IMG/VR virus record: IMGVR_UViG_3300037863_000046
Span: 1-28,614 of that record
DNA from: a virus
Lineage: Duplodnaviria > Caudoviricetes
DNA length: 28,614 nt
Strand: one strand, 5' to 3'
Positions 9,396-28,614 of this stretch are shown here, in pieces. Each line of letters begins with the position of its first letter. The first letter of the stretch is position 1. Both the position numbers and the translations under genes were made by a program. Under the pieces are notes generated by a model. The model was not told where the DNA came from, ran no database searches, and saw only the letters and a list, made by a program, of their open reading frames with translations.

Positions 9396-10325
9396 TTATC
9401 CGTTTGTAGCTGCAGACTGAATCTGGTAGAGAGCTGATGTACGGAGTAGGTTGAAGCCACCAAAGTAGTACCAACCGATTGTGTGGAAACGACGGAGCGC
9501 ATCAATCTGGGGCCCGATAACTGTTGAGATATCTTGTCCCTGTGCCTCTGCTAGTGCTTCGCGTCCTGCGACAACGGCCTTGTAGACGTTGACTGATCCT
9601 GAGTTTGCAGCAAAAGGCACACGAGGTGTCTCTACTACAAAGGCTCCTTCAATTACGCCGACTGCGCCTGCCACGAATGGTGTGCGGTCTGTGTACTTTG
9701 AAAGCTCCTGGAATCCACCTGTACCAGTTTCAGCGCGAAGATCGGCTGTCTGACGTGGGTGTAGGTATGCTGCATATAGTTCGCCAATACGAGGCAAAGC
9801 CTTGTTTGTGCGAAGTTCTGTTACAGCCTCACGGATGCCAGAAACAGAGATCTTCATTGCTGAAGTGATTGTGTTTGTTGTTGTTGCTGTTCCTGCGTAG
9901 ATGATGTTAGTTCCTGAAGTAAGAACTGATGCTACAACTGAGTCAATAGAATCTGCAGCGTTGTATGCAATGATGTCAGCAAGTGCTGCATCTACATCGT
10001 TGAAAGAAGTTAAGTTTAACTTCTTAGTTGTTGTTACGGCTGAGCCGTACTCGTTTAGTGTTACTGTAACCTGGTTTGGGTTACCTAGAGCAATTGAAGA
10101 TACATCTGATGCTTCTGTCAATGTAGATGTTGCTTGCGCTAAATCTGAATAGATAGAGAACACAACTGATGAACCTGGCATTGCTTGCTGTACTGGCTTT
10201 ACGTCAGCAAGTGCTCGCATAACAGGGATTGAACGCAACGCCATACGGACGTATTGATCATAAGCTGTTTGTACGAGGTTGCTAATCGCAGAGGTACCAG
10301 TAAGTGTACCTGATGGAATTGCCAT
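9396..10325 (-). CDS. Major capsid protein (HK97 fold, N4-gp56-like)
   Basis: 309 aa; PGSSVVF, TLTE, VTVTLNEYG, YAAYLHP...DLR, G.VG.IEG..VVETPR, D.L.RF..IGWY motifs; follows a scaffold-like gene. Confidence 0.9.
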   Translation of the reverse strand: MAIPSGTLTGTSAISNLVQTAYDQYVRMALRSIPVMRALADVKPVQQAMPGSSVVFSIYSDLAQATSTLTEASDVSSIALGNPNQVTVTLNEYGSAVTTTKKLNLTSFNDVDAALADIIAYNAADSIDSVVASVLTSGTNIIYAGTATTTNTITSAMKISVSGIREAVTELRTNKALPRIGELYAAYLHPRQTADLRAETGTGGFQELSKYTDRTPFVAGAVGVIEGAFVVETPRVPFAANSGSVNVYKAVVAGREALAEAQGQDISTVIGPQIDALRRFHTIGWYYFGGFNLLRTSALYQIQSAATNG

Positions 10326-21658: not shown

Positions 21659-23518
21659 TTAGATAAAGTGACGTTCTTTTTCAGCAAGCATCTCATCTAT
21701 GTTGATGACTACTCGCTTACCCATCTCGTGTCTAGATAGGAAAGGGTTTTTCATATGGTGGTTTGCGTACTGACCGTTATTGAGCATCTCACGTGCTCGG
21801 ATCTCACAAAACCACAAAGCCATTACCATATCGGTCTTACCCTTAGTAGTAGGTGACCAGGTAATTAACTGCTCTATTAAAGCCTTAATGTTCTCAGTTT
21901 GATCTGAAGGCAGGTGCATTAGGTTATCTCTATGGTGCTTACCATCTGCTTGCTTAGTACCAAACAGGGTAGACATAGATGCCACACCAAAGCCTGAGTC
22001 CCACTTATTAGAACCAGTATGGTGCTCACGAAGTATTACACCACGTGAGGCTAGGTGGCGACGCAGTTCTTCATCTTGCGTAAGGAAAGCCTGAAAGGCG
22101 TTCTTTTCTACAATCCACTCAGACGGCCCGTAAAGGGAAGTCCAGTCAATTATAAGTCCCTTGATTTGTGCAGGAGAAGGTCGAGTAATTTTGAAAGCAT
22201 CAACGATATAGCGTTTATGAGTAATGCGATCGACTGCATAACAAACCACAGCGGTATCACCAACAATAGCAGGGTCCATACCGCAAATAAAACTATACCC
22301 GTTAAGGTCGCGCGGATGACCAGGATTGCCTGCAATTAACTTACCAGCCTTACGCATACCGTCAATGGAACCGCGTACTGTGACAGGATCAAAGATTGCA
22401 TTGTCTGAGACATCTTGTTGTTGATAGACCAAAGCCCACGTCTGTGCGTCCATAGCTTGGCGCTCTGAAGATAGGTGCTTGCCGTTCCATCTAGGATAGA
22501 GACCATTTTCATCTTTATCTGTGTCAACTTGTCCTTCAAAGGGTTGGTCGGATTTGGGCCATAGAGTTACCCACTTTTCTTTATCTTCATTTGTTTCCAA
22601 AAGGGCTGGCATAGCAAGATATGTCCAAGGTACTTGACCGCCTGGGTAGCGGTCTTCTTGGCGTATCTCGCGGTATAGATCAACGGATGCTACACGTGTA
22701 CCAATAATAATAAGTTTGCCTGTGGGGTTAAGGCGGGACCGTACGTCTTGCGTTAACCAGCGAATCTGCTTTTCGAACTCGTTAGCGTTCTTAAGAGTAA
22801 CGGCGTCATCTACAATAATCATATCGGCACGCTTGCCGTAGATCTGACCGCCGATACCGACAGCCTCAATATTTGGATCCTTCTCAGATGACTCACGAAG
22901 TTCATCACCAAAGGTAACGCGGGTTGCAGTCCAAGTAGCAGACTTAGAGTTAAAGCCAACACCAGCGGCGTAGGCTGCTTGTAAGTCAGCATACATTGGG
23001 TGGGTCAATCTTTGCTTGATAGCATAAAGGAAGTCTGCTGCAAGTTGCTGAGTCTGGGAAACTATCAAGACTCTAAAGTTGGGATTTTGGACTACCTTCC
23101 ACGTTACGTAGTCTACGGTGACCGTAATGGACTTGGCGTGGTTGGGAGGGATGTTAATCAAAATACGGTTCTGGTTTAGACCAGGTTCAAACTTCATAGA
23201 GGGGTGGAGCCAGGATGGCTCGCGTCCCTCAATTACATCTATAAGGTTTTGCTGATGACCGAAGGTATGCTGATGCAGGTACTTTTTGCGAAAGGTAGCA
23301 AAATCTATGTCGTGAACATCAGTTGAGGCAAAAGCCTTGTCTTTTAGACCAAGGCGCGTTCTGTCTATCTTGTCTGTAAATATCTTATCTGTGCGACGGT
23401 AATACTCGTAGGTCTTTAAAGATTTGCCGGCCTGACCACAGGCGGCCTCAATAGTCATACCCTCGGCAACACAGCCAATGATTAACCGCTTGGCGATGTC
23501 GGCTGAGTTGTCTGCCAT
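21659..23518 (-). CDS. terL: Terminase large subunit with N-terminal HTH-like extension
   Basis: Walker A-like NIPPNHAKS, Walker B MIIVDD, coupling motif IIGTR, RNase H-like GMDPA, VEKNAFQ, and C-terminal TDMVMALW; AAGGAG RBS. Confidence 0.92.
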   Translation of the reverse strand: MADNSADIAKRLIIGCVAEGMTIEAACGQAGKSLKTYEYYRRTDKIFTDKIDRTRLGLKDKAFASTDVHDIDFATFRKKYLHQHTFGHQQNLIDVIEGREPSWLHPSMKFEPGLNQNRILINIPPNHAKSITVTVDYVTWKVVQNPNFRVLIVSQTQQLAADFLYAIKQRLTHPMYADLQAAYAAGVGFNSKSATWTATRVTFGDELRESSEKDPNIEAVGIGGQIYGKRADMIIVDDAVTLKNANEFEKQIRWLTQDVRSRLNPTGKLIIIGTRVASVDLYREIRQEDRYPGGQVPWTYLAMPALLETNEDKEKWVTLWPKSDQPFEGQVDTDKDENGLYPRWNGKHLSSERQAMDAQTWALVYQQQDVSDNAIFDPVTVRGSIDGMRKAGKLIAGNPGHPRDLNGYSFICGMDPAIVGDTAVVCYAVDRITHKRYIVDAFKITRPSPAQIKGLIIDWTSLYGPSEWIVEKNAFQAFLTQDEELRRHLASRGVILREHHTGSNKWDSGFGVASMSTLFGTKQADGKHHRDNLMHLPSDQTENIKALIEQLITWSPTTKGKTDMVMALWFCEIRAREMLNNGQYANHHMKNPFLSRHEMGKRVVINIDEMLAEKERHFI

Positions 23519-23845
23519 TGGATCTCCTTTAAAGGTAGCGCCGAAGGCGTATAAAAAAAATTTTGAGATAGGCCGAAATGAAAATGCTTTTTATACCTGC
23601 GTTGCTAGATTTTTACCCACCAGGGTAAAGATATACCTGTCCCAATGTTATTTGTAAAAAGACAGAACTATCCAATACTAAGTAGTACTGGTCGGGCTTG
23701 GCGCCCGAGTGAGCCCTAAGCGAAATGAGGGGTAATAACGTACTCGGCCTAGGGGGCCTCGACAGAGGCAATTCGGGGCTTCTAGAAAGCTTAAGCCCCT
23801 ACTATATATAAGGCAGGAAATTTAACGTATTTCTCGTTTTAGCAA

Positions 23846-23861
23846 TGTGATGTGTAACACA
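23846..23861. promoter_or_regulatory. CRP/GlxR-like box 1 (TGTGA-N6-ACACA)
   Basis: TGTGA TGTGTA ACACA; 9/10 match to TGTGA-N6-TCACA. Confidence 0.5.
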
Positions 23862-24088
23862 GTACGTATAAGTGCTGTTCAGAGCCTATTTGACTTTAGG
23901 AAATATTTCTTTTTAGGGAGTATATATATAGAGCGCACGCGCTTCAACAACAGGGGGTCTCGTTTTTTGCCTAAGTTAAGGGTACCCCCGCCCCCCCTGC
24001 TTGCTTATGCGTACGGGTTGGCTGATTATCTAAAAGAATATGGGGGCTGACTAAACTATCGGCAGGGATAATTTAATAGCTCTCTACT

Positions 24089-24116
24089 TAATAGGGGCAG
24101 ACTAATAGGGGCAGAC
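24089..24116 (+). repeat. 14-bp direct tandem repeat (TAATAGGGGCAGAC x2)
   Basis: Exact duplication at 24089-24102 and 24103-24116, followed by a degenerate ATAGGCA. Confidence 0.85.
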
Positions 24117-24286
24117 ATAGGCAACACTTAACAACTAACCGGCTCTAGCTCTCACTCTCTCTACTACTCACAGCTTACTAATTGCAAAATTGAATCAGGG
24201 CTAGGCTGTCTGTCTATTGTCGATAAAGAGACATAGCCTAATTAAATAAAGCTCTAATAAACAACCCTTAAGCCTTACCCCTATAG

Positions 24287-24302
24287 TGTGACGCATAACA
24301 CA
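24287..24302. promoter_or_regulatory. CRP/GlxR-like box 2 (TGTGA-N6-ACACA)
   Basis: TGTGA CGCATA ACACA; same deviation as box 1; just upstream of a putative early promoter. Confidence 0.55.
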
Positions 24303-24313
24303 CCCTTAGATAG

Positions 24314-24341
24314 TGGACGGGGCTACCCCATACATTAGAAT
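24314..24341 (+). promoter_or_regulatory. Putative sigma70/HrdB-type early promoter
   Basis: TGGACG (24314-19), 16-bp spacer, TAGAAT (24336-41), ~40 bp upstream of the first early ORF. Confidence 0.45.
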
Positions 24342-24383
24342 TAGCACTAAGAGTAAAAGCTCTTAATTATGAGAGGGTAAAAA

Positions 24384-24731
24384 ATGAGACTACTAAGCGA
24401 AGAATATCAGGGGTGGAGCAATCGCGAGACTTGGGCTGTAGCTTTACACCTAAGTAATGACCAAGGGCTTTATATTGAGACGCAAGCACTAACGCGCGAG
24501 GCAATGGCTAAAAATTTAACTAGTAATCCAGATTATTGGTTAGCGGATAGCCTTGAAGAATTAGTATATGAATTGTTCAAATTTAAGAATGTCTCCACTA
24601 ATGAAGAGTTATTCAATATGCTCGCTTATATTGGATCTCTCTACCGCGTGAATTGGCGCGAGATCGCGCAGGGTTACATCGATAATATGGTGAGTGATAG
24701 CGCTATCGGCTTGCAAGGTGTAGCCCTCTAA
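24384..24731 (+). CDS. Early hypothetical protein (GWxNxETW motif)
   Basis: 115 aa; YQGWSNRETWAVALHLSND motif recalled from phage early proteins; GAGGGTAA RBS. Confidence 0.75.
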   Translation: MRLLSEEYQGWSNRETWAVALHLSNDQGLYIETQALTREAMAKNLTSNPDYWLADSLEELVYELFKFKNVSTNEELFNMLAYIGSLYRVNWREIAQGYIDNMVSDSAIGLQGVAL

Positions 24732-24834
24732 TTAAGGGTTAGCCCTATCCCCTAAGCGGGGCGCGGTGAGCAAGACACTATAGGGCGCGAGACTAGGCGC
24801 TAGGCTTAGACTTACAATAGAGAGAGGGCAAGTA

Positions 24835-24933
24835 ATGGACATAATAGAAGAGATCGTTAAAGAGATAGAATTAGAGGCTTGGCGCGAGTTAGGTGTAAAG
24901 CGAGCGAAAGAGAGAGAGGGAGAGGGTAAGTGA
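24835..24933 (+). CDS. Early peptide (32 aa)
   Basis: Not in track. MDIIEEIVKEIELEAWRELGVKRAKEREGEGK; GAGGGCAA RBS at 24824-31. Confidence 0.55.
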   Translation: MDIIEEIVKEIELEAWRELGVKRAKEREGEGK

Positions 24934-25070
24934 TTACTAGGCGCGGGAAAATAGTGAGGGCACTAACTATCCTGGCACTATTAGCCTTAATCGTATGGAT
25001 ATCGGGGAATATATGGTGGACAGGCGAGGGCTGGTGTATCGGATCTATGAGTGAGTGCGTAACGATCTAG
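24930..25070 (+). CDS. Small membrane protein (46 aa)
   Basis: Not in track. GTGA-coupled; MITRRGKIVRALTILALLALIVWISGNIWWTGEGWCIGSMSECVTI: basic N-terminus, one TM helix, two Cys. Confidence 0.65.
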   Translation: MITRRGKIVRALTILALLALIVWISGNIWWTGEGWCIGSMSECVTI

Positions 25071-25169
25071 GCGCGAGACTATCGCCTATCGTGTAAGCGG
25101 TAGACGGTGGCCGGTGTCTAGCCGGTTCTCTGCCGCGATAGCGGGAGAGATTGAGAGAGAGGGCAAGAG

Positions 25170-25334
25170 ATGATAATAGAGAGAATAAGACATAGTGGCG
25201 CGCTAGTGCTATCCGATTCTGTAGGAGAGGGCGCGAGCGGATACCTTTACACGCTCACCTGGGTTATGGGTGAACAAGCGCAAGCGATAAGGTTATTTAA
25301 GATAGCACTAGCGAAAGAGGGCGAAAATGAGTGA
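25170..25334 (+). CDS. Early hypothetical protein (54 aa)
   Basis: Not in track. MIIERIRHSGALVLSDSVGEGASGYLYTLTW...; GAGGGCAA RBS at 25159-66. Confidence 0.6.
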   Translation: MIIERIRHSGALVLSDSVGEGASGYLYTLTWVMGEQAQAIRLFKIALAKEGENE

Positions 25335-25566
25335 GTATAATTACAGGGTTACTTTCGTGACTGATTACTTAACAATTACCACCAATACGGAGCTTGCTTT
25401 AGATGAGCATACCGGCAATTTAAGCTTAGCTGCCTACACGTTAGCGGCACAAGCTGGCCGCGATAACGTTATAGATGAGTTAGGCTCATTTGATGAGACA
25501 CTAATTAACAATATAATAGTTACTTTACTGTTGGATAATGAAGATATTGAATTGGATGTATCCTAA
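25327..25566 (+). CDS. Early acidic hypothetical protein
   Basis: 79 aa; GAGGGCGA RBS at 25317-24. Confidence 0.7.
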   Translation: MSEYNYRVTFVTDYLTITTNTELALDEHTGNLSLAAYTLAAQAGRDNVIDELGSFDETLINNIIVTLLLDNEDIELDVS

Positions 25567-25695
25567 CGCTAAGTAGTGGCGTACTATCTTACTCTACCTA
25601 AATAGGGTAGAGTAAGGTAGTCTGCACCTAACAAGGGTAGATACTCACCAGCAAACGCGGGTGGGGAAGAGAGCAAGTGGAAGAGGGCGAGAGCA

Positions 25696-25839
25696 ATGAG
25701 TAAAATACTAATGGCGTGGGAAGATGGCGTTAAAACTTATGATATATCTGATGAGTTGGAGCGCGTTAAAGAAGAATTAAAGCAAGAGATCGCAAAAAAT
25801 CTTGCGTGGGCTAACGGAGAGGGCGAGAGCAATGGTTAA
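25696..25839 (+). CDS. Early hypothetical protein (47 aa)
   Basis: Not in track. MSKILMAWEDGVKTYDISDELERVKEELKQEIAKNLAWANGEGESNG; GAGGGCGA RBS at 25683-90. Confidence 0.6.
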   Translation: MSKILMAWEDGVKTYDISDELERVKEELKQEIAKNLAWANGEGESNG

Positions 25840-25957
25840 AATGGATACGTGGGACGAAATGCGATGTCCACAATGCGACACGTGGTTCTACCCTGAAAAG
25901 AATCAACGCAGGTGGTGTCAAGTATGCAACGACAAAGAGGGAGAGAGCAATGAATAA
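25832..25957 (+). CDS. Small zinc-finger-like protein (41 aa)
   Basis: Not in track. MVKMDTWDEMRCPQCDTWFYPEKNQRRWCQVCNDKEGESNE (CxxC-x13-CxxC); GAGGGCGA RBS at 25819-26. Confidence 0.65.
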   Translation: MVKMDTWDEMRCPQCDTWFYPEKNQRRWCQVCNDKEGESNE

Positions 25958-26111
25958 CGAATACCTGAAAGCTAAGTTTGATTTGTGCGTAGACCAAGCA
26001 GAAAAGAACATACAAGAGGAGAACATAGACGAGGCAATTAAGAACCTACGCAGGGCTAACCTTGCTCTGTCTCGTATCTTTAACCTAAATGAGGAGGAGA
26101 GTAATGGATAA
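25950..26111 (+). CDS. Early helical hypothetical protein (53 aa)
   Basis: Not in track. MNNEYLKAKFDLCVDQAEKNIQEENIDEAIKNLRRANLALSRIF...; GAGGGAGA RBS at 25937-44. Confidence 0.65.
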   Translation: MNNEYLKAKFDLCVDQAEKNIQEENIDEAIKNLRRANLALSRIFNLNEEESNG

Positions 26112-26364
26112 CGTATTCTCTATTCATCAACCAAAGTCTGATCTTATCCTGCTCTATGAGGTAGTGGGAGAGGACGGACACCCTGTATGGGGAGGAGAGG
26201 ACGCTAGCGAGGCTCTTAAGTGGCTACGCTCTAACCTTGCAGACAGGGCACGCTTACTAGTATCTGCTTGGGATAGCGACGCAGAGGACGCTCACTTGGT
26301 AGGTCAGACGATAGACCTAACTCAGATAGTAATGGCTGCCTTCAAAGAAGGGCTAAAGTTATGA
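26104..26364 (+). CDS. Hypothetical protein (start re-called at 26104)
   Basis: MDNVFSIHQPKSDLILLYEVV...WGGEDA...VSAWDSD; GAGGAG RBS upstream of ATG 26104. Confidence 0.7.
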   Translation: MDNVFSIHQPKSDLILLYEVVGEDGHPVWGGEDASEALKWLRSNLADRARLLVSAWDSDAEDAHLVGQTIDLTQIVMAAFKEGLKL

Positions 26365-26450
26365 TGTATTGGTTGGGGATAGGGCTAGCTTTGCTGGTAG
26401 CCTATGTGATTATAGTGATAGATGAGAAGGTTAATAATGAGAGAAAGTAA
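26361..26450 (+). CDS. Small membrane peptide (29 aa)
   Basis: Not in track. ATGA-coupled; MMYWLGIGLALLVAYVIIVIDEKVNNERK. Confidence 0.5.
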   Translation: MMYWLGIGLALLVAYVIIVIDEKVNNERK

Positions 26451-26724
26451 AGAAGTAAGCGGTAAGCAAGCAGTTCACTATCGAAACTACAGACGAGCAA
26501 GAGATCGTGCGCTAGTGCGCCTGTCTCACCTTCATCCCAACGTGTATAAAGACCTACTTATTGAAGAGAGGCAGAGAGATGAAGACCAAAATACGAAATG
26601 GGTTAGTAGTAATACTAGCGTTAGCGTTACTATGGGTGTTCGCTCCGGACCAAAACGTAAGAATAGAACTACCAAAAGATCTAGTAATCGTGGCAAGACA
26701 CGCAACAATGGAAGAAAAGCGTGA
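26437..26724 (+). CDS. Basic hypothetical protein (YRRARDRAL motif)
   Basis: MRESKEVSGKQAVHYRNYRRARDRALVRLSHLHP...; start re-called at 26437; C-terminal tail overlaps the next gene. Confidence 0.65.
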   Translation: MRESKEVSGKQAVHYRNYRRARDRALVRLSHLHPNVYKDLLIEERQRDEDQNTKWVSSNTSVSVTMGVRSGPKRKNRTTKRSSNRGKTRNNGRKA

Positions 26725-26995
26725 GAACAGGTCACTTGTCGTTAGTTACTCACGAGCCCTCGGTTACACCAAGAGTGAAACCAAGTGCCTCATCACCCTT
26801 TGGACCCGTGAGAGCAGGCTTGACCACCTTGCAGACAACCCAGAATCAACAGCTTTCGGAATTGCTCAACTTCTTAGAGAGCGTAGTCGAGAGCCTGAAC
26901 TACAAATCCTTCACGGTATACGATACCTTGAACACCGTTATCGAGGAAATTCGTGCCGCGCTCTTGCCCACAGCAACAGACGAGGCTGGTACTAA
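26579..26995 (+). CDS. Lytic transglycosylase (SLT/lysozyme-like) with N-terminal TM/signal anchor
   Basis: CLITLWTRES (catalytic Glu), ADNPESTAFGIAQLL, QILHGIRYLEHRY, C-terminal GWY as in actinobacterial SLT-like proteins; hydrophobic LVVILALALLWVF; start re-called at ATG 26579. Confidence 0.82.
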   Translation: MKTKIRNGLVVILALALLWVFAPDQNVRIELPKDLVIVARHATMEEKRENRSLVVSYSRALGYTKSETKCLITLWTRESRLDHLADNPESTAFGIAQLLRERSREPELQILHGIRYLEHRYRGNSCRALAHSNRRGWY

Positions 26996-27075
26996 TGAGT
27001 GATTTAACGGCGTTATACATCACCATAGTTCTTACTTCATTCATTCTTGCTTGGATAGTCTGGAAGTGTTTCTAA
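26995..27075 (+). CDS. Small membrane peptide (26 aa)
   Basis: Not in track. TAATG-coupled; MSDLTALYITIVLTSFILAWIVWKCF. Confidence 0.45.
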   Translation: MSDLTALYITIVLTSFILAWIVWKCF

Positions 27076-27095
27076 TGGGCGAGGTGGAGGAATAA

Positions 27096-28274
27096 ATGAA
27101 ACTAATAAACGCAGACTGCATCGCGGCAATGAAGGATATGCCTGACAACTCGGTGGATTCAATCGTCACGGACCCACCTTACGAGCTAGGGTTTATGGGT
27201 AAATCTTGGGACTCAACTGGTATTGCCAACTCCGTTGAAATGTGGAGCGAGGCGTTACGAGTCCTTAAGCCAGGCGGTCACTTAATCGCCTTCTCGGGTT
27301 CGCGCACTTATCACCGTATGGCAGTCGCTATTGAAGATGCAGGGTTTCAAATCCGCGACCAGATTATGTGGGTGTACGGGTCGGGTTTCCCTAAGTCGCA
27401 CAACATTAGTAAAGGGATTGATAAGGCAAGCGACTACAACGGCGAAGTCATAGGTACAGAGACTGTTGATGTCGGTATGCAAGGTGGGAAGATGCACTCA
27501 GGCAGACCGCAACAACTCGCAGAAAGGGAAATTAAAAAGTCATCTCCCGCCGCTCAGCAATGGGAGGGCTGGGGAACTGCACTAAAACCTGCTCACGAGC
27601 CGATGGTGTTGGCACGGAAACCTTTTATTGGCACCGTTGCAAATAATGTCCTCACTCACGGCACGGGTGGATTGAACATTGATGGGTGCAGGGTTACCGC
27701 TGAAGATGAAAACTTTGACAACCTAAAGGGCAGACCAATAACAAAATTGGCAATTCAGCGAGTGGGGGAAACAGATGCTGACCACAGCGCCCGCGTTCTT
27801 GAGTCGCCAGCGCAACAAGAGGCGTTAGCAAAACTTAAAGAACTAAGTCGTTTCCCCGCAAACTTTATTCACAATGGAAGCGATGAGGTGTTGGCGTTGT
27901 TAGGAGACGCTGCCCGATTCTTTTATTGTGCCAAGACTTCAAAGCGCGATAGGAATGAAGGGCTTGAGGGGTTTGAGGTCAAAGAAAAGCGTTATATGGC
28001 AACTGCAAACGGAACTGGTGAAACATCAAAAGGGATGGATAGATTTACGACTCAACCTATCGCCAACCATCACCCAACCGTCAAACCAACCGACCTTATG
28101 CGCTATCTATGCAGACTTATCACACCGCCAAACGGAACGGTACTCGACCCATTTATGGGAAGTGGCTCCACCGGCAAGGCGGCAATTCTTGAGGGCTTTG
28201 ATTTTATAGGAATTGAACAGGATGCCGCTTACATTGAGATTGCTAAGGCCAGGATTGCTTATGTCCAATCTTGA
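27096..28274 (+). CDS. N6-adenine/N4-cytosine DNA methyltransferase (beta class), orphan
   Basis: Motif IV VTDPPY, HPTVKP, motif I VLDPFMGSGSTG in beta order; GGAGG RBS; no neighbouring restriction endonuclease gene recognised. Confidence 0.93.
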   Translation: MKLINADCIAAMKDMPDNSVDSIVTDPPYELGFMGKSWDSTGIANSVEMWSEALRVLKPGGHLIAFSGSRTYHRMAVAIEDAGFQIRDQIMWVYGSGFPKSHNISKGIDKASDYNGEVIGTETVDVGMQGGKMHSGRPQQLAEREIKKSSPAAQQWEGWGTALKPAHEPMVLARKPFIGTVANNVLTHGTGGLNIDGCRVTAEDENFDNLKGRPITKLAIQRVGETDADHSARVLESPAQQEALAKLKELSRFPANFIHNGSDEVLALLGDAARFFYCAKTSKRDRNEGLEGFEVKEKRYMATANGTGETSKGMDRFTTQPIANHHPTVKPTDLMRYLCRLITPPNGTVLDPFMGSGSTGKAAILEGFDFIGIEQDAAYIEIAKARIAYVQS

Positions 28275-28398
28275 GTTGCGCGAGGAGATAGCCAAAGAGA
28301 TTGAGGCGTTATTTGATTACATAGATAATCGTAGGCCTGATTATTATCAGGCTTTAGAACAAGCCGCCGCTATCGCTAGGGGCGAGGTGAAGGAATGA
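28261..28398 (+). CDS. Small helical hypothetical protein (45 aa; start re-called at 28261)
   Basis: MSNLELREEIAKEIEA...QAAAIARGEVKE. Confidence 0.55.
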   Translation: MSNLELREEIAKEIEALFDYIDNRRPDYYQALEQAAAIARGEVKE

Positions 28399-28406
28399 GT
28401 AATATC

Positions 28407-28415
28407 TGATACAAT
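28407..28415 (+). promoter_or_regulatory. Extended -10 promoter (TGnTACAAT)
   Basis: TG-A-TACAAT at 28407-28415, in intergenic DNA 8 bp before a hairpin, with no ORF downstream on this strand. Confidence 0.6.
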
Positions 28416-28420
28416 AATAA

Positions 28421-28472
28421 CCTTAACCCTCGTGCCGTTGTTTGCCCTCCAGCACGGGGGTTATTTCTTTTT
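28421..28472 (+). ncRNA. Putative ~50-nt hairpin sRNA with loop antisense to early-gene RBS motif (also acts as intrinsic terminator)
   Basis: Stem TAACCCTCGTGC (28424-35)/GCACGGGGGTTA (28452-63), 16-nt loop CGTTGTTTGCCCTCCA, U-tail TTTCTTTTT; upstream extended -10. The terminator role is well supported; the sRNA role is inferred. Confidence 0.55.
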
Positions 28473-28550
28473 AATCCACACCTGATTGTGGATACTGCGC
28501 TCAACACTGAGTTCACTCCTACAAGTGGGACAGTTATAGTCATAGATCAT
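28461..28550 (-). CDS. Short FmdB-like zinc-ribbon protein, apparently truncated (29 aa)
   Basis: Not in track. MIYDYNCPTCRSELSVERSIHNQVWIKKK; M-x-Y-x-Y-x-CxxC start as in FmdB-family proteins but lacks the second CxxC; ATGA-coupled to the upstream ORF. Confidence 0.45.
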   Translation of the reverse strand: MIYDYNCPTCRSELSVERSIHNQVWIKKK

Positions 28551-28614
28551 AACTGTATGCCTTCCTCTATTGGTAGATACCCTACCAACTTACTTACTTT
28601 GTTAGAACGTGAGA
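28547..28614 (-). CDS. C-terminus of a protein entering from the right edge
   Basis: Open frame ...SRSNKVSKLVGYLPIEEGIQL* ending at TGA 28547-49, coupled to the next ATG. Confidence 0.5.
   Translation of the reverse strand, partial: SRSNKVSKLVGYLPIEEGIQL

Follow-up and report, generated by a model that had tools for sequence, protein, structure and literature searches.

INTRODUCTION

In lytic phages, proteins are generally held responsible for shutting off the early genes. The c4 antisense RNA of phages P1 and P7 belongs to a temperate immunity region, controls one antirepressor message, and differs in specificity among related phages (PMC12197685). The 6C/B11 RNA of mycobacteria is host encoded and uses C-run loops against the G-rich ribosome-binding sites (RBSs) of many genes, and is reported to be chaperone independent (PMC10470900, PMC6486639). 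OppZ and CarZ of Vibrio cholerae are RNase E-processed RNAs from operon 3' ends that pair with their own message, act on a subset of its genes, and shape its kinetics (PMC7398697). The closest known counterpart on the target side is the SAS motif of cluster K mycobacteriophages, which is repeated at the RBSs of many genes and has conserved bases that are unable to pair with 16S rRNA (PMC3203893). Statements on published systems here and below refer to the available parts of the cited sources.

We analyzed a 28.6-kb phage record (IMG/VR record IMGVR_UViG_3300037863_000046); the window below means this whole stretch of 28,614 nucleotides. The original prediction placed near its end a small phage RNA whose loop is antisense to an RBS shared by the early genes. 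Like c4, this element would be a phage-encoded structured RNA with a loop seed against a phage RBS, and the complementarity was confirmed by computation. Its targets differ from that of c4: they are small ORFs and a DUF7249 gene, and in relatives also a PF02767 gene, with no match to an antirepressor family. Up to seven separate genes of the early block carry one target tag, and no immunity region was seen (for c4, see PMC12197685). The element shares with 6C/B11 an actinobacterial setting and a C-rich loop directed at G-rich RBSs of many genes, but it is phage encoded, CU rich, and lineage variable, and it reaches into the spacer and start codon (compare PMC10470900). Its position at the 3' end of an operon fits OppZ and CarZ, whereas it differs from these processed RNAs in that three subfamilies have a separate promoter motif and a single tag marks many targets (PMC7398697). 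The early motif is also different from the start-associated sequences (SAS), for which the 2011 study did not settle on a reader (PMC3203893); here, the candidate reader is an RNA. The element works like c4, 6C/B11, and OppZ/CarZ and, by the tests run, is a member of none of them.

In the literature searched, which left most subscription papers outside, nothing was reported on a phage RNA directed at an RBS tag common to early genes of the same phage. The element is not described in the available parts of PMC5737381, PMC11536984, PMC10690425, and PMC10202952. The searched part of the Fremin 2023 supplements gave no match, and the hairpin may be among the 10,006 candidates of that work.

RESULTS

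Gene layout of the window

The virion genes of the window lie on the minus strand (terminase at 21659-23518, major head gene at 9396-10325). A plus-strand block of small ORFs begins at 24384, downstream of a noncoding gap, and is taken to be early from its position and the size of its genes. Two side observations concern this region: two GGGGCAGAC repeats in the gap, at 24094 and 24108 on the plus strand, pair with the loop described below at -12.8 and -14.4 kcal/mol, and a long intergenic hairpin lies within the early block at 25574-25630, between targets 5 and 6 (Table 1).

The window terminase shares 45 to 46% identity with those of F5 and E7, two cultured phages of Planktophila, and 43 to 44% with those of Streptomyces cluster BF phages; genes for WhiB and a sigma-70 region 4 protein were present in each of the five related records tested. 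We therefore read the window as a probable freshwater actinophage. The layout of this freshwater family is common to phages of the abundant Nanopelagicales (terminase 45% identical). Among the genome contigs scanned, no host-linked copy of the element was confirmed.

A promoter-hairpin-terminator unit at the end of the early block

The extended -10 motif, gap, stem, loop, and U-tail were all present as the original prediction described them (Table 1). The -10 motif starts 9 nt past the stop codon of the last plus-strand ORF, 8 nt separate it from the stem, and its position predicts a transcription start at about 28421 to 28423. A consensus promoter scanner did not list a promoter at 28407 because it requires a -35 box. 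The 52-nt piece folds at -19.8 kcal/mol, and none of 200 shuffles was equally stable. The stem is likely both the terminator stem and the scaffold that holds the loop, in which TTGCCCTC is located at 28442-28449. A GC-rich stem followed by a U-tract, as found here, is the signature of an intrinsic terminator; termination itself is predicted from sequence only.

Two other readings of the unit were rejected. As the RBS of a minus-strand ORF, the loop would need a start codon behind the minus-strand motif, and one with an ORF of at least 20 aa was found in 21 of the 112 copies described below but not in the window. A leader or attenuator of a downstream operon was discarded because the following gene is convergent. 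The exact 18-nt loop had no match among the viral contigs scanned. The exact loop type of the window occurred in 6 viral and 9 metagenome stretches, all too short to include the front early genes; these 15 include one unrelated stretch and several duplicates of the same contigs.

Conservation of the unit in relatives

Relatives were gathered by alignments of two early proteins, the transglycosylase-like gene, and the terminase (best 80 matches for three of the four), and copies of the element were then located in their loci by iterated nhmmer. Counting redundant contigs, 130 loci extended at least 2.5 kb past the transglycosylase-like gene, and in 123 of them the element stood at the convergence point, on the strand of the early genes. 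From 180 defined copies (L075 and L134 left out, L190 not usable), those with less than 3 kb or fewer than 10 genes upstream, or with over half shared at 92% identity, were dropped. The 112 nonredundant copies left formed four subfamilies, A (57 copies), B (23, including the window), C (12), and D (20); each copy exposes either one CU-rich segment or two.

The loop-bearing structure was conserved. In 48 aligned copies, mostly of subfamilies B, C, and D, the terminator stem was 97.4% paired over 660 cells, 11 of its 14 pairs varied on both sides in a compensatory manner, and the plus-strand stem cells included 68 G-U pairs versus 17 unpaired ones. Minimum free energy folds contained 236 G-U pairs on the plus strand versus 156 on the minus strand. 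The polarity of the predicted fold is thereby shown to be that of the plus strand.

The motif TGnTAnnnT was found at the expected position in 54 of the 55 B, C, and D copies and in 11 of the 57 A copies, compared with none of 112 controls taken 300 nt upstream. Its TGA doubles as the stop codon of the upstream transglycosylase-like gene in 35 of the 65 motif-bearing copies; the other 30 stand behind different genes. In subfamily A the loop is carried by a separate, nonterminator hairpin, and a few copies are bare terminators (L023, L040, and L072). An opposite-strand second unit, with a promoter-like motif and a small hairpin, was seen in 29 of the 57 A copies (for example, L028:1984-2075, plus strand); it has the bidirectional terminator in common with the element and is possibly a second small RNA. 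A fifth form, outside the four HMMs, was observed in L163 and L281 just behind the transglycosylase-like gene or the next ORF, and consists of a CU-rich single-stranded stretch and then a terminator with a different loop.

Rfam 15, which presumably includes the c4, 6C, and cuckoo-type families, gave no match to the element in window positions 23000-28614 at an E value of up to 5 and no match at gathering score on 12 loci. At an E value of up to 1, eight loci gave only Thr_leader at 30 bits (cutoff, 55) on L127 and one tRNA-like match. The element is real, conserved, and uncatalogued in Rfam.

The loop is complementary to the RBSs of the front early genes

The pattern GAGGG[CT][AG]A has exactly seven plus-strand matches in the window, every one before an early start, with the start codon 8 to 13 nt further on (Table 1); its single minus-strand match is the loop itself. 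Both substitutions among the sites are compatible with G-U pairing, in agreement with the original prediction, and the eighth site that it had listed does carry a mismatch. Pairing energies were calculated with a perfect-helix model that we built from Turner stacks, with the cost of opening the RNA included and target accessibility left aside. The seven tagged starts scored -10.7 to -16.2 kcal/mol, and the other eight plus-strand starts scored -8.0 to 0. The proposed regulon thus holds for the front of the early block and does not extend to all early genes. All 28 late or minus-strand starts were weaker than -7.5 kcal/mol (about -7.4 to 0), which bears out the claim that virion genes pair less well. 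The exact 8-mer match also stands, but the extent of the best pairing had been undercounted, since 14 nt can pair at target 2.

In a blind ranking of hairpins against plus-strand starts, the element came first of 69, at -13.2 against -7.3 kcal/mol. Loop-shuffle controls gave 3 of 500, and 16 of 500 when the CCCTCC core was retained. On the seven sites of the window, its own RNA ranked 4th among the 112 family RNAs. Over the whole window, 140 sites exceeded -7 kcal/mol, and four non-RBS sites at -14.4 to -15.8 kcal/mol beat six of the seven targets.

One part of the original prediction, that the early genes use a private Shine-Dalgarno (SD) variant, did not survive: the early motif pairs at -8.6 to -12.4 kcal/mol with what we take to be the actinobacterial 16S tail (anti-SD), the sequence also used for start calls. 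The motif is an ordinary SD site plus a lineage tag, the lineage-specific part being the spacer after GGG.

Table 1. Positions of the unit, its predicted targets, and analogous hairpins (window coordinates unless a locus is named; energies in kcal/mol)
Feature	Position	Strand	Remarks
Extended -10 promoter motif TGnTAnnnT, reads TGATACAAT	28407..28415	+	Predicted promoter, from sequence
Hairpin stem, 12 bp including one G-U	28424..28463 (arms 28424-28435, 28452-28463)	+	z -4.1; covariation in relatives
16-nt loop, predicted pairing seed	28436..28451	+	Complementary to RBS, spacer, and start codon of first early genes
U-tail of predicted intrinsic terminator, TTTCTTTTT	28464..28472	+	Overlaps stop codon of converging minus-strand ORF
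Converging zinc-ribbon ORF, 26 aa	28470..28550	-	Shorter than 58-aa forms in L086 and L028; stop codon sits in U-tail
Predicted target 1, RBS of ORF 24384-24731 (DUF7249, PF23907)	24373..24380	+	-11.0
Predicted target 2, RBS of ORF 24835	24824..24837	+	-16.2; 14 nt pairing through start codon; best nonself site in window
Predicted target 3, RBS of ORF 24930-25070	24922..24929	+	-10.7; protein family 3, without cognate bias across relatives
Predicted target 4, RBS of 54-aa ORF 25170-25334	25159..25167	+	-12.7; family 5, with the clearest tracking of the loop by its RBS
Predicted target 5, RBS of ORF 25327-25566	25317..25325	+	-12.7; family 14, not significant
Predicted target 6, RBS of ORF 25696-25839	25683..25691	+	-12.4
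Predicted target 7, RBS of ORF starting at 25832	25819..25827	+	-12.4
Mismatched eighth site, reads GAGGGAGA	25937..25944	+	-4.4 as perfect helix; -15.5 with bulges, opening cost ignored
Cluster BF hairpins	L299:38396-38502; L300:13840-13943; also L301-L303	- (L299, L300)	Loop complementary to early RBS motif

Covariation of the loop with the early RBSs

Starts were called in all genomes by one rule, pairing to the assumed 16S tail, and every RNA was scored against the early starts of every genome, the cognate combination being compared with expectation (n = 112). The cognate advantage was 1.49 kcal/mol for the best site, 1.11 for the top three sites, and 0.53 for the mean, each reached in 0 of 10,000 permutations. 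An earlier set of 51 genomes showed the same bias. In the 47 genomes with middle genes, the early bias was reached in 0 of 5,000 permutations, whereas the middle genes, which form the other flank of the element and are equally linked and co-inherited, showed no cognate bias (1,012 and 4,086 of 5,000). By position, the bias was at its maximum 1.5 to 2.5 kb before the transglycosylase-like gene and was gone in the last kilobase.

When 47 orthologue families were compared, the bias was strongest in families 5 and 6, also with permutation within subfamilies. Family 5 (54 aa, window gene 25170; n = 48) had a residual of -2.9 (0 of 2,000 permutations); the ESM Atlas gave no function for it. Family 6 (200 aa, beta-clamp-like PF02767; n = 46), which is absent from the window, had a residual of -2.6; in L057 (3588-4184, minus strand) and its relatives, this protein is encoded among the front early genes. 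Both families had been chosen from the first genome set, and the bias held in genomes outside that set (n = 34 and 33, once 6 and 5 rows had been removed for an erroneous family assignment or start; 0 and 0, 0 and 5 of 10,000 permutations). For family 5 in subfamily A, positions outside the SD gave 88 of 112 Watson-Crick matches versus 75.7 expected (9 of 10,000). At the second base after GGG, G was found in 4 of 5 cases in which the loop predicts G, and T in 19 of 23 in which it predicts T.

Each of six loop classes was enriched for the matching RBS motif (Fisher P values from 0.04 to 3e-10, with motifs picked post hoc). By the top-three measure, the cognate combination was better in 13 and worse in 1 of the 15 closest pairs with different loop classes, and better in 29 and worse in 7 of 37 such pairs; neither set is path disjoint. 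The best-site measure gave 10 to 5 for class-differing pairs.

Other comparisons were less favorable. Within subfamily B, to which the window belongs, there was no bias (6,327 of 10,000 permutations), and subfamilies C and D were not significant within the group by the best-site measure. No cognate bias was seen in the five early families with the most members, among them the families of window genes 24930, 25950, 26104, 26361, and 26579. Among 56 nearest-sister pairs, whole early regions were better with the cognate RNA in 22 and worse in 20; the counts were 10 to 5 (P = 0.15) and 8 to 7 for family 5 and 11 to 2 and 9 to 3 for family 6. Strict independent pairs for the loop class of the window split 1.9 in the same direction and 2.0 in the opposite one, and the other classes had too few pairs. 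With 13 carriers, the loop class of the window shows 10 changes on the core-gene tree; this suggests a mobile module, and loop modules appear to have passed between lineages. Several genomes of this class, such as L083 and L086, have few matching RBSs.

The covariation of seed and target forecast for a trans-acting small RNA was therefore found overall and in families 5 and 6; it was absent within the subfamily of the window and from the strict pairs of its class, and the pair tests were mixed. Given these uneven sister-pair, independent-pair, and family results, the match is preserved by lineage and in individual genes, alongside many recombinants that do not match. The window itself belongs to the well-matched group. 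Taken as a whole, the comparative evidence for loop-RBS pairing is good but uneven, and we are fairly confident that some such pairing occurs.

Cultured phages F5, E7, and cluster BF

The early and some middle genes of F5 and E7 have an RBS motif in common, GACAGGAG (in F5, L283, at 22847-27116 and 31298-32664). The element is absent from the convergence point of both phages, and the blind detector found no hairpin in F5 that matches the shared motif (best, -7.0 of 104). An apparent antisense loop at F5 31298 was rejected, being the RBS of a minus-strand gene. A shared RBS motif alone thus proves nothing, because F5 has one without a matching hairpin.

In two Streptomyces phages, the detector put at the top a hairpin with a loop complementary to the early RBS motif, first of 356 in the whole Immanuel3 genome and first of 177 in the right half of WRightOn. 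Across five BF phages, the loop of this hairpin is nearly invariant while its stem covaries, and 8/11, 8/11, 8/14, 9/11, and 8/12 of the upstream starts pair at -11 kcal/mol or better; pairing is also seen at some downstream starts. The hairpin occurs in 29 records, RefSeq duplicates included. It lies inside the early block, where neither a promoter nor a U-tail is apparent, and by HMM it does not resemble the freshwater family. It can extend into a long helix beside the SD of the next gene and is a possible RNA switch. We regard it as an analogue that offers no covariation test. As a separate observation, the Streptomyces phage Stella record has near its end an 85-bit 16S rRNA fragment (L303:8126-8234, minus strand), possibly an assembly artifact.

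DISCUSSION

The unit at 28407-28472 has a conserved anatomy and plus-strand polarity, and its loop is complementary to the front-early RBSs and statistically matched with them. On balance we lean, with only a modest preference, to the view that it likely yields a small RNA acting in trans as an antisense repressor of the front-early genes. A host-type extended -10 promoter would fire independently of the early transcript, and a terminator-stabilized RNA of about 50 nt would accumulate. Its loop would pair with the RBS, the spacer, and sometimes the start codon of the first early genes. Pairing across the SD and start codon normally blocks ribosomes, and the tagged genes would be repressed as a group in this way. 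Such delayed negative feedback could limit the early proteins, which probably serve host takeover, to a pulse; the untagged middle and late genes would remain translated. By analogy with the actinobacterial 6C/B11 RNA, a chaperone would be unnecessary. We infer the firing of the promoter, the free RNA, repression rather than stabilization, and the purpose of feedback. On the question of a discrete RNA, the promoter motif is kept in three of the four subfamilies and missing in 46 of the 57 copies of the fourth, subfamily A.

The same pairing could be made by a loop that is the 3' end of a long early transcript, folding back in cis or released as a processed 3' untranslated fragment as in OppZ, with the -10 motif secondary. 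Such an origin would suit the place of the unit, which closes the early block at its 3' end and shares its strand, the BF hairpin with neither promoter nor U-tail in view inside its early block, and subfamily A, which mostly lacks the -10 motif yet has the clearest covariation. We nevertheless consider it unlikely, given targets 2.6 to 4.1 kb distant and a -10 motif at a fixed distance in 54 of the 55 B, C, and D copies despite varying upstream genes. The unit might even be a plain terminator between convergent operons, its loop copied at the DNA level from the RBS tag or hitchhiking without a regulatory role. It does sit precisely where the operons converge, with its end across the opposing stop codon, some relatives have it bare (L023, L040, and L072), F5 carries a shared tag with no hairpin found, and the sister-pair tests are weak. 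A terminator, however, does not need the conserved promoter motif ahead of it, and subfamily A keeps a separate nonterminator hairpin only for display of the loop. The equally linked middle genes show no bias, and five BF phages have an analogous near-invariant loop on a covarying stem. We judge this explanation improbable.

Another reading makes the RNA a general anti-SD agent against host mRNAs or superinfecting related phages, in which case the match to the early genes of its own phage is incidental or a means of immunity. The sequence CCTCCTTT, that of the assumed 16S tail, is present in 18 of the 112 copies, RNAs of subfamilies B and C pair with the sites of the window as well as its own RNA does, and heteroimmunity follows the same logic in the case of c4 (PMC12197685). 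Because the pairing reaches the spacer beyond the SD and tracks variants of its own genome, while pairing is weak at the ordinary SDs of late and middle genes, we give this reading a similarly low probability. Finally, the pairing may be real with a different sign, early mRNA being protected from decay or the minus-strand copy acting as a decoy for an RBS tag-binding protein. The minus strand folds comparably (-22 kcal/mol) and displays the RBS motif, and Pope et al. left open whether start-associated sequences are read by RNA or protein (PMC3203893). We hold this to be very unlikely: G-U polarity, U-tail, and promoter all favor the plus strand, and for a minus-strand transcript, the loop hairpin of subfamily A would fall beyond the terminator. 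The scarcity of ORFs behind the minus-strand motif, given above, and the usual block of ribosomes by SD and start-codon pairing also speak against it.

The preferred reading, repression in trans by a small RNA, would have consequences beyond this phage. One RNA that reads a shared RBS tag would form a compact translational regulon whose target sets are predictable from sequence. It would also give repeated start-associated motifs a function, together with the reader on which the 2011 study did not decide (PMC3203893). Because an analogous hairpin exists in cultured Streptomyces BF phages, the question is testable on laboratory hosts. We offer as a tentative proposal, with chances a little short of even, that actinophage podoviruses, from uncultured freshwater phages to Streptomyces BF phages, may use an RNA address code for early shut-off in which tag and loop coevolve.
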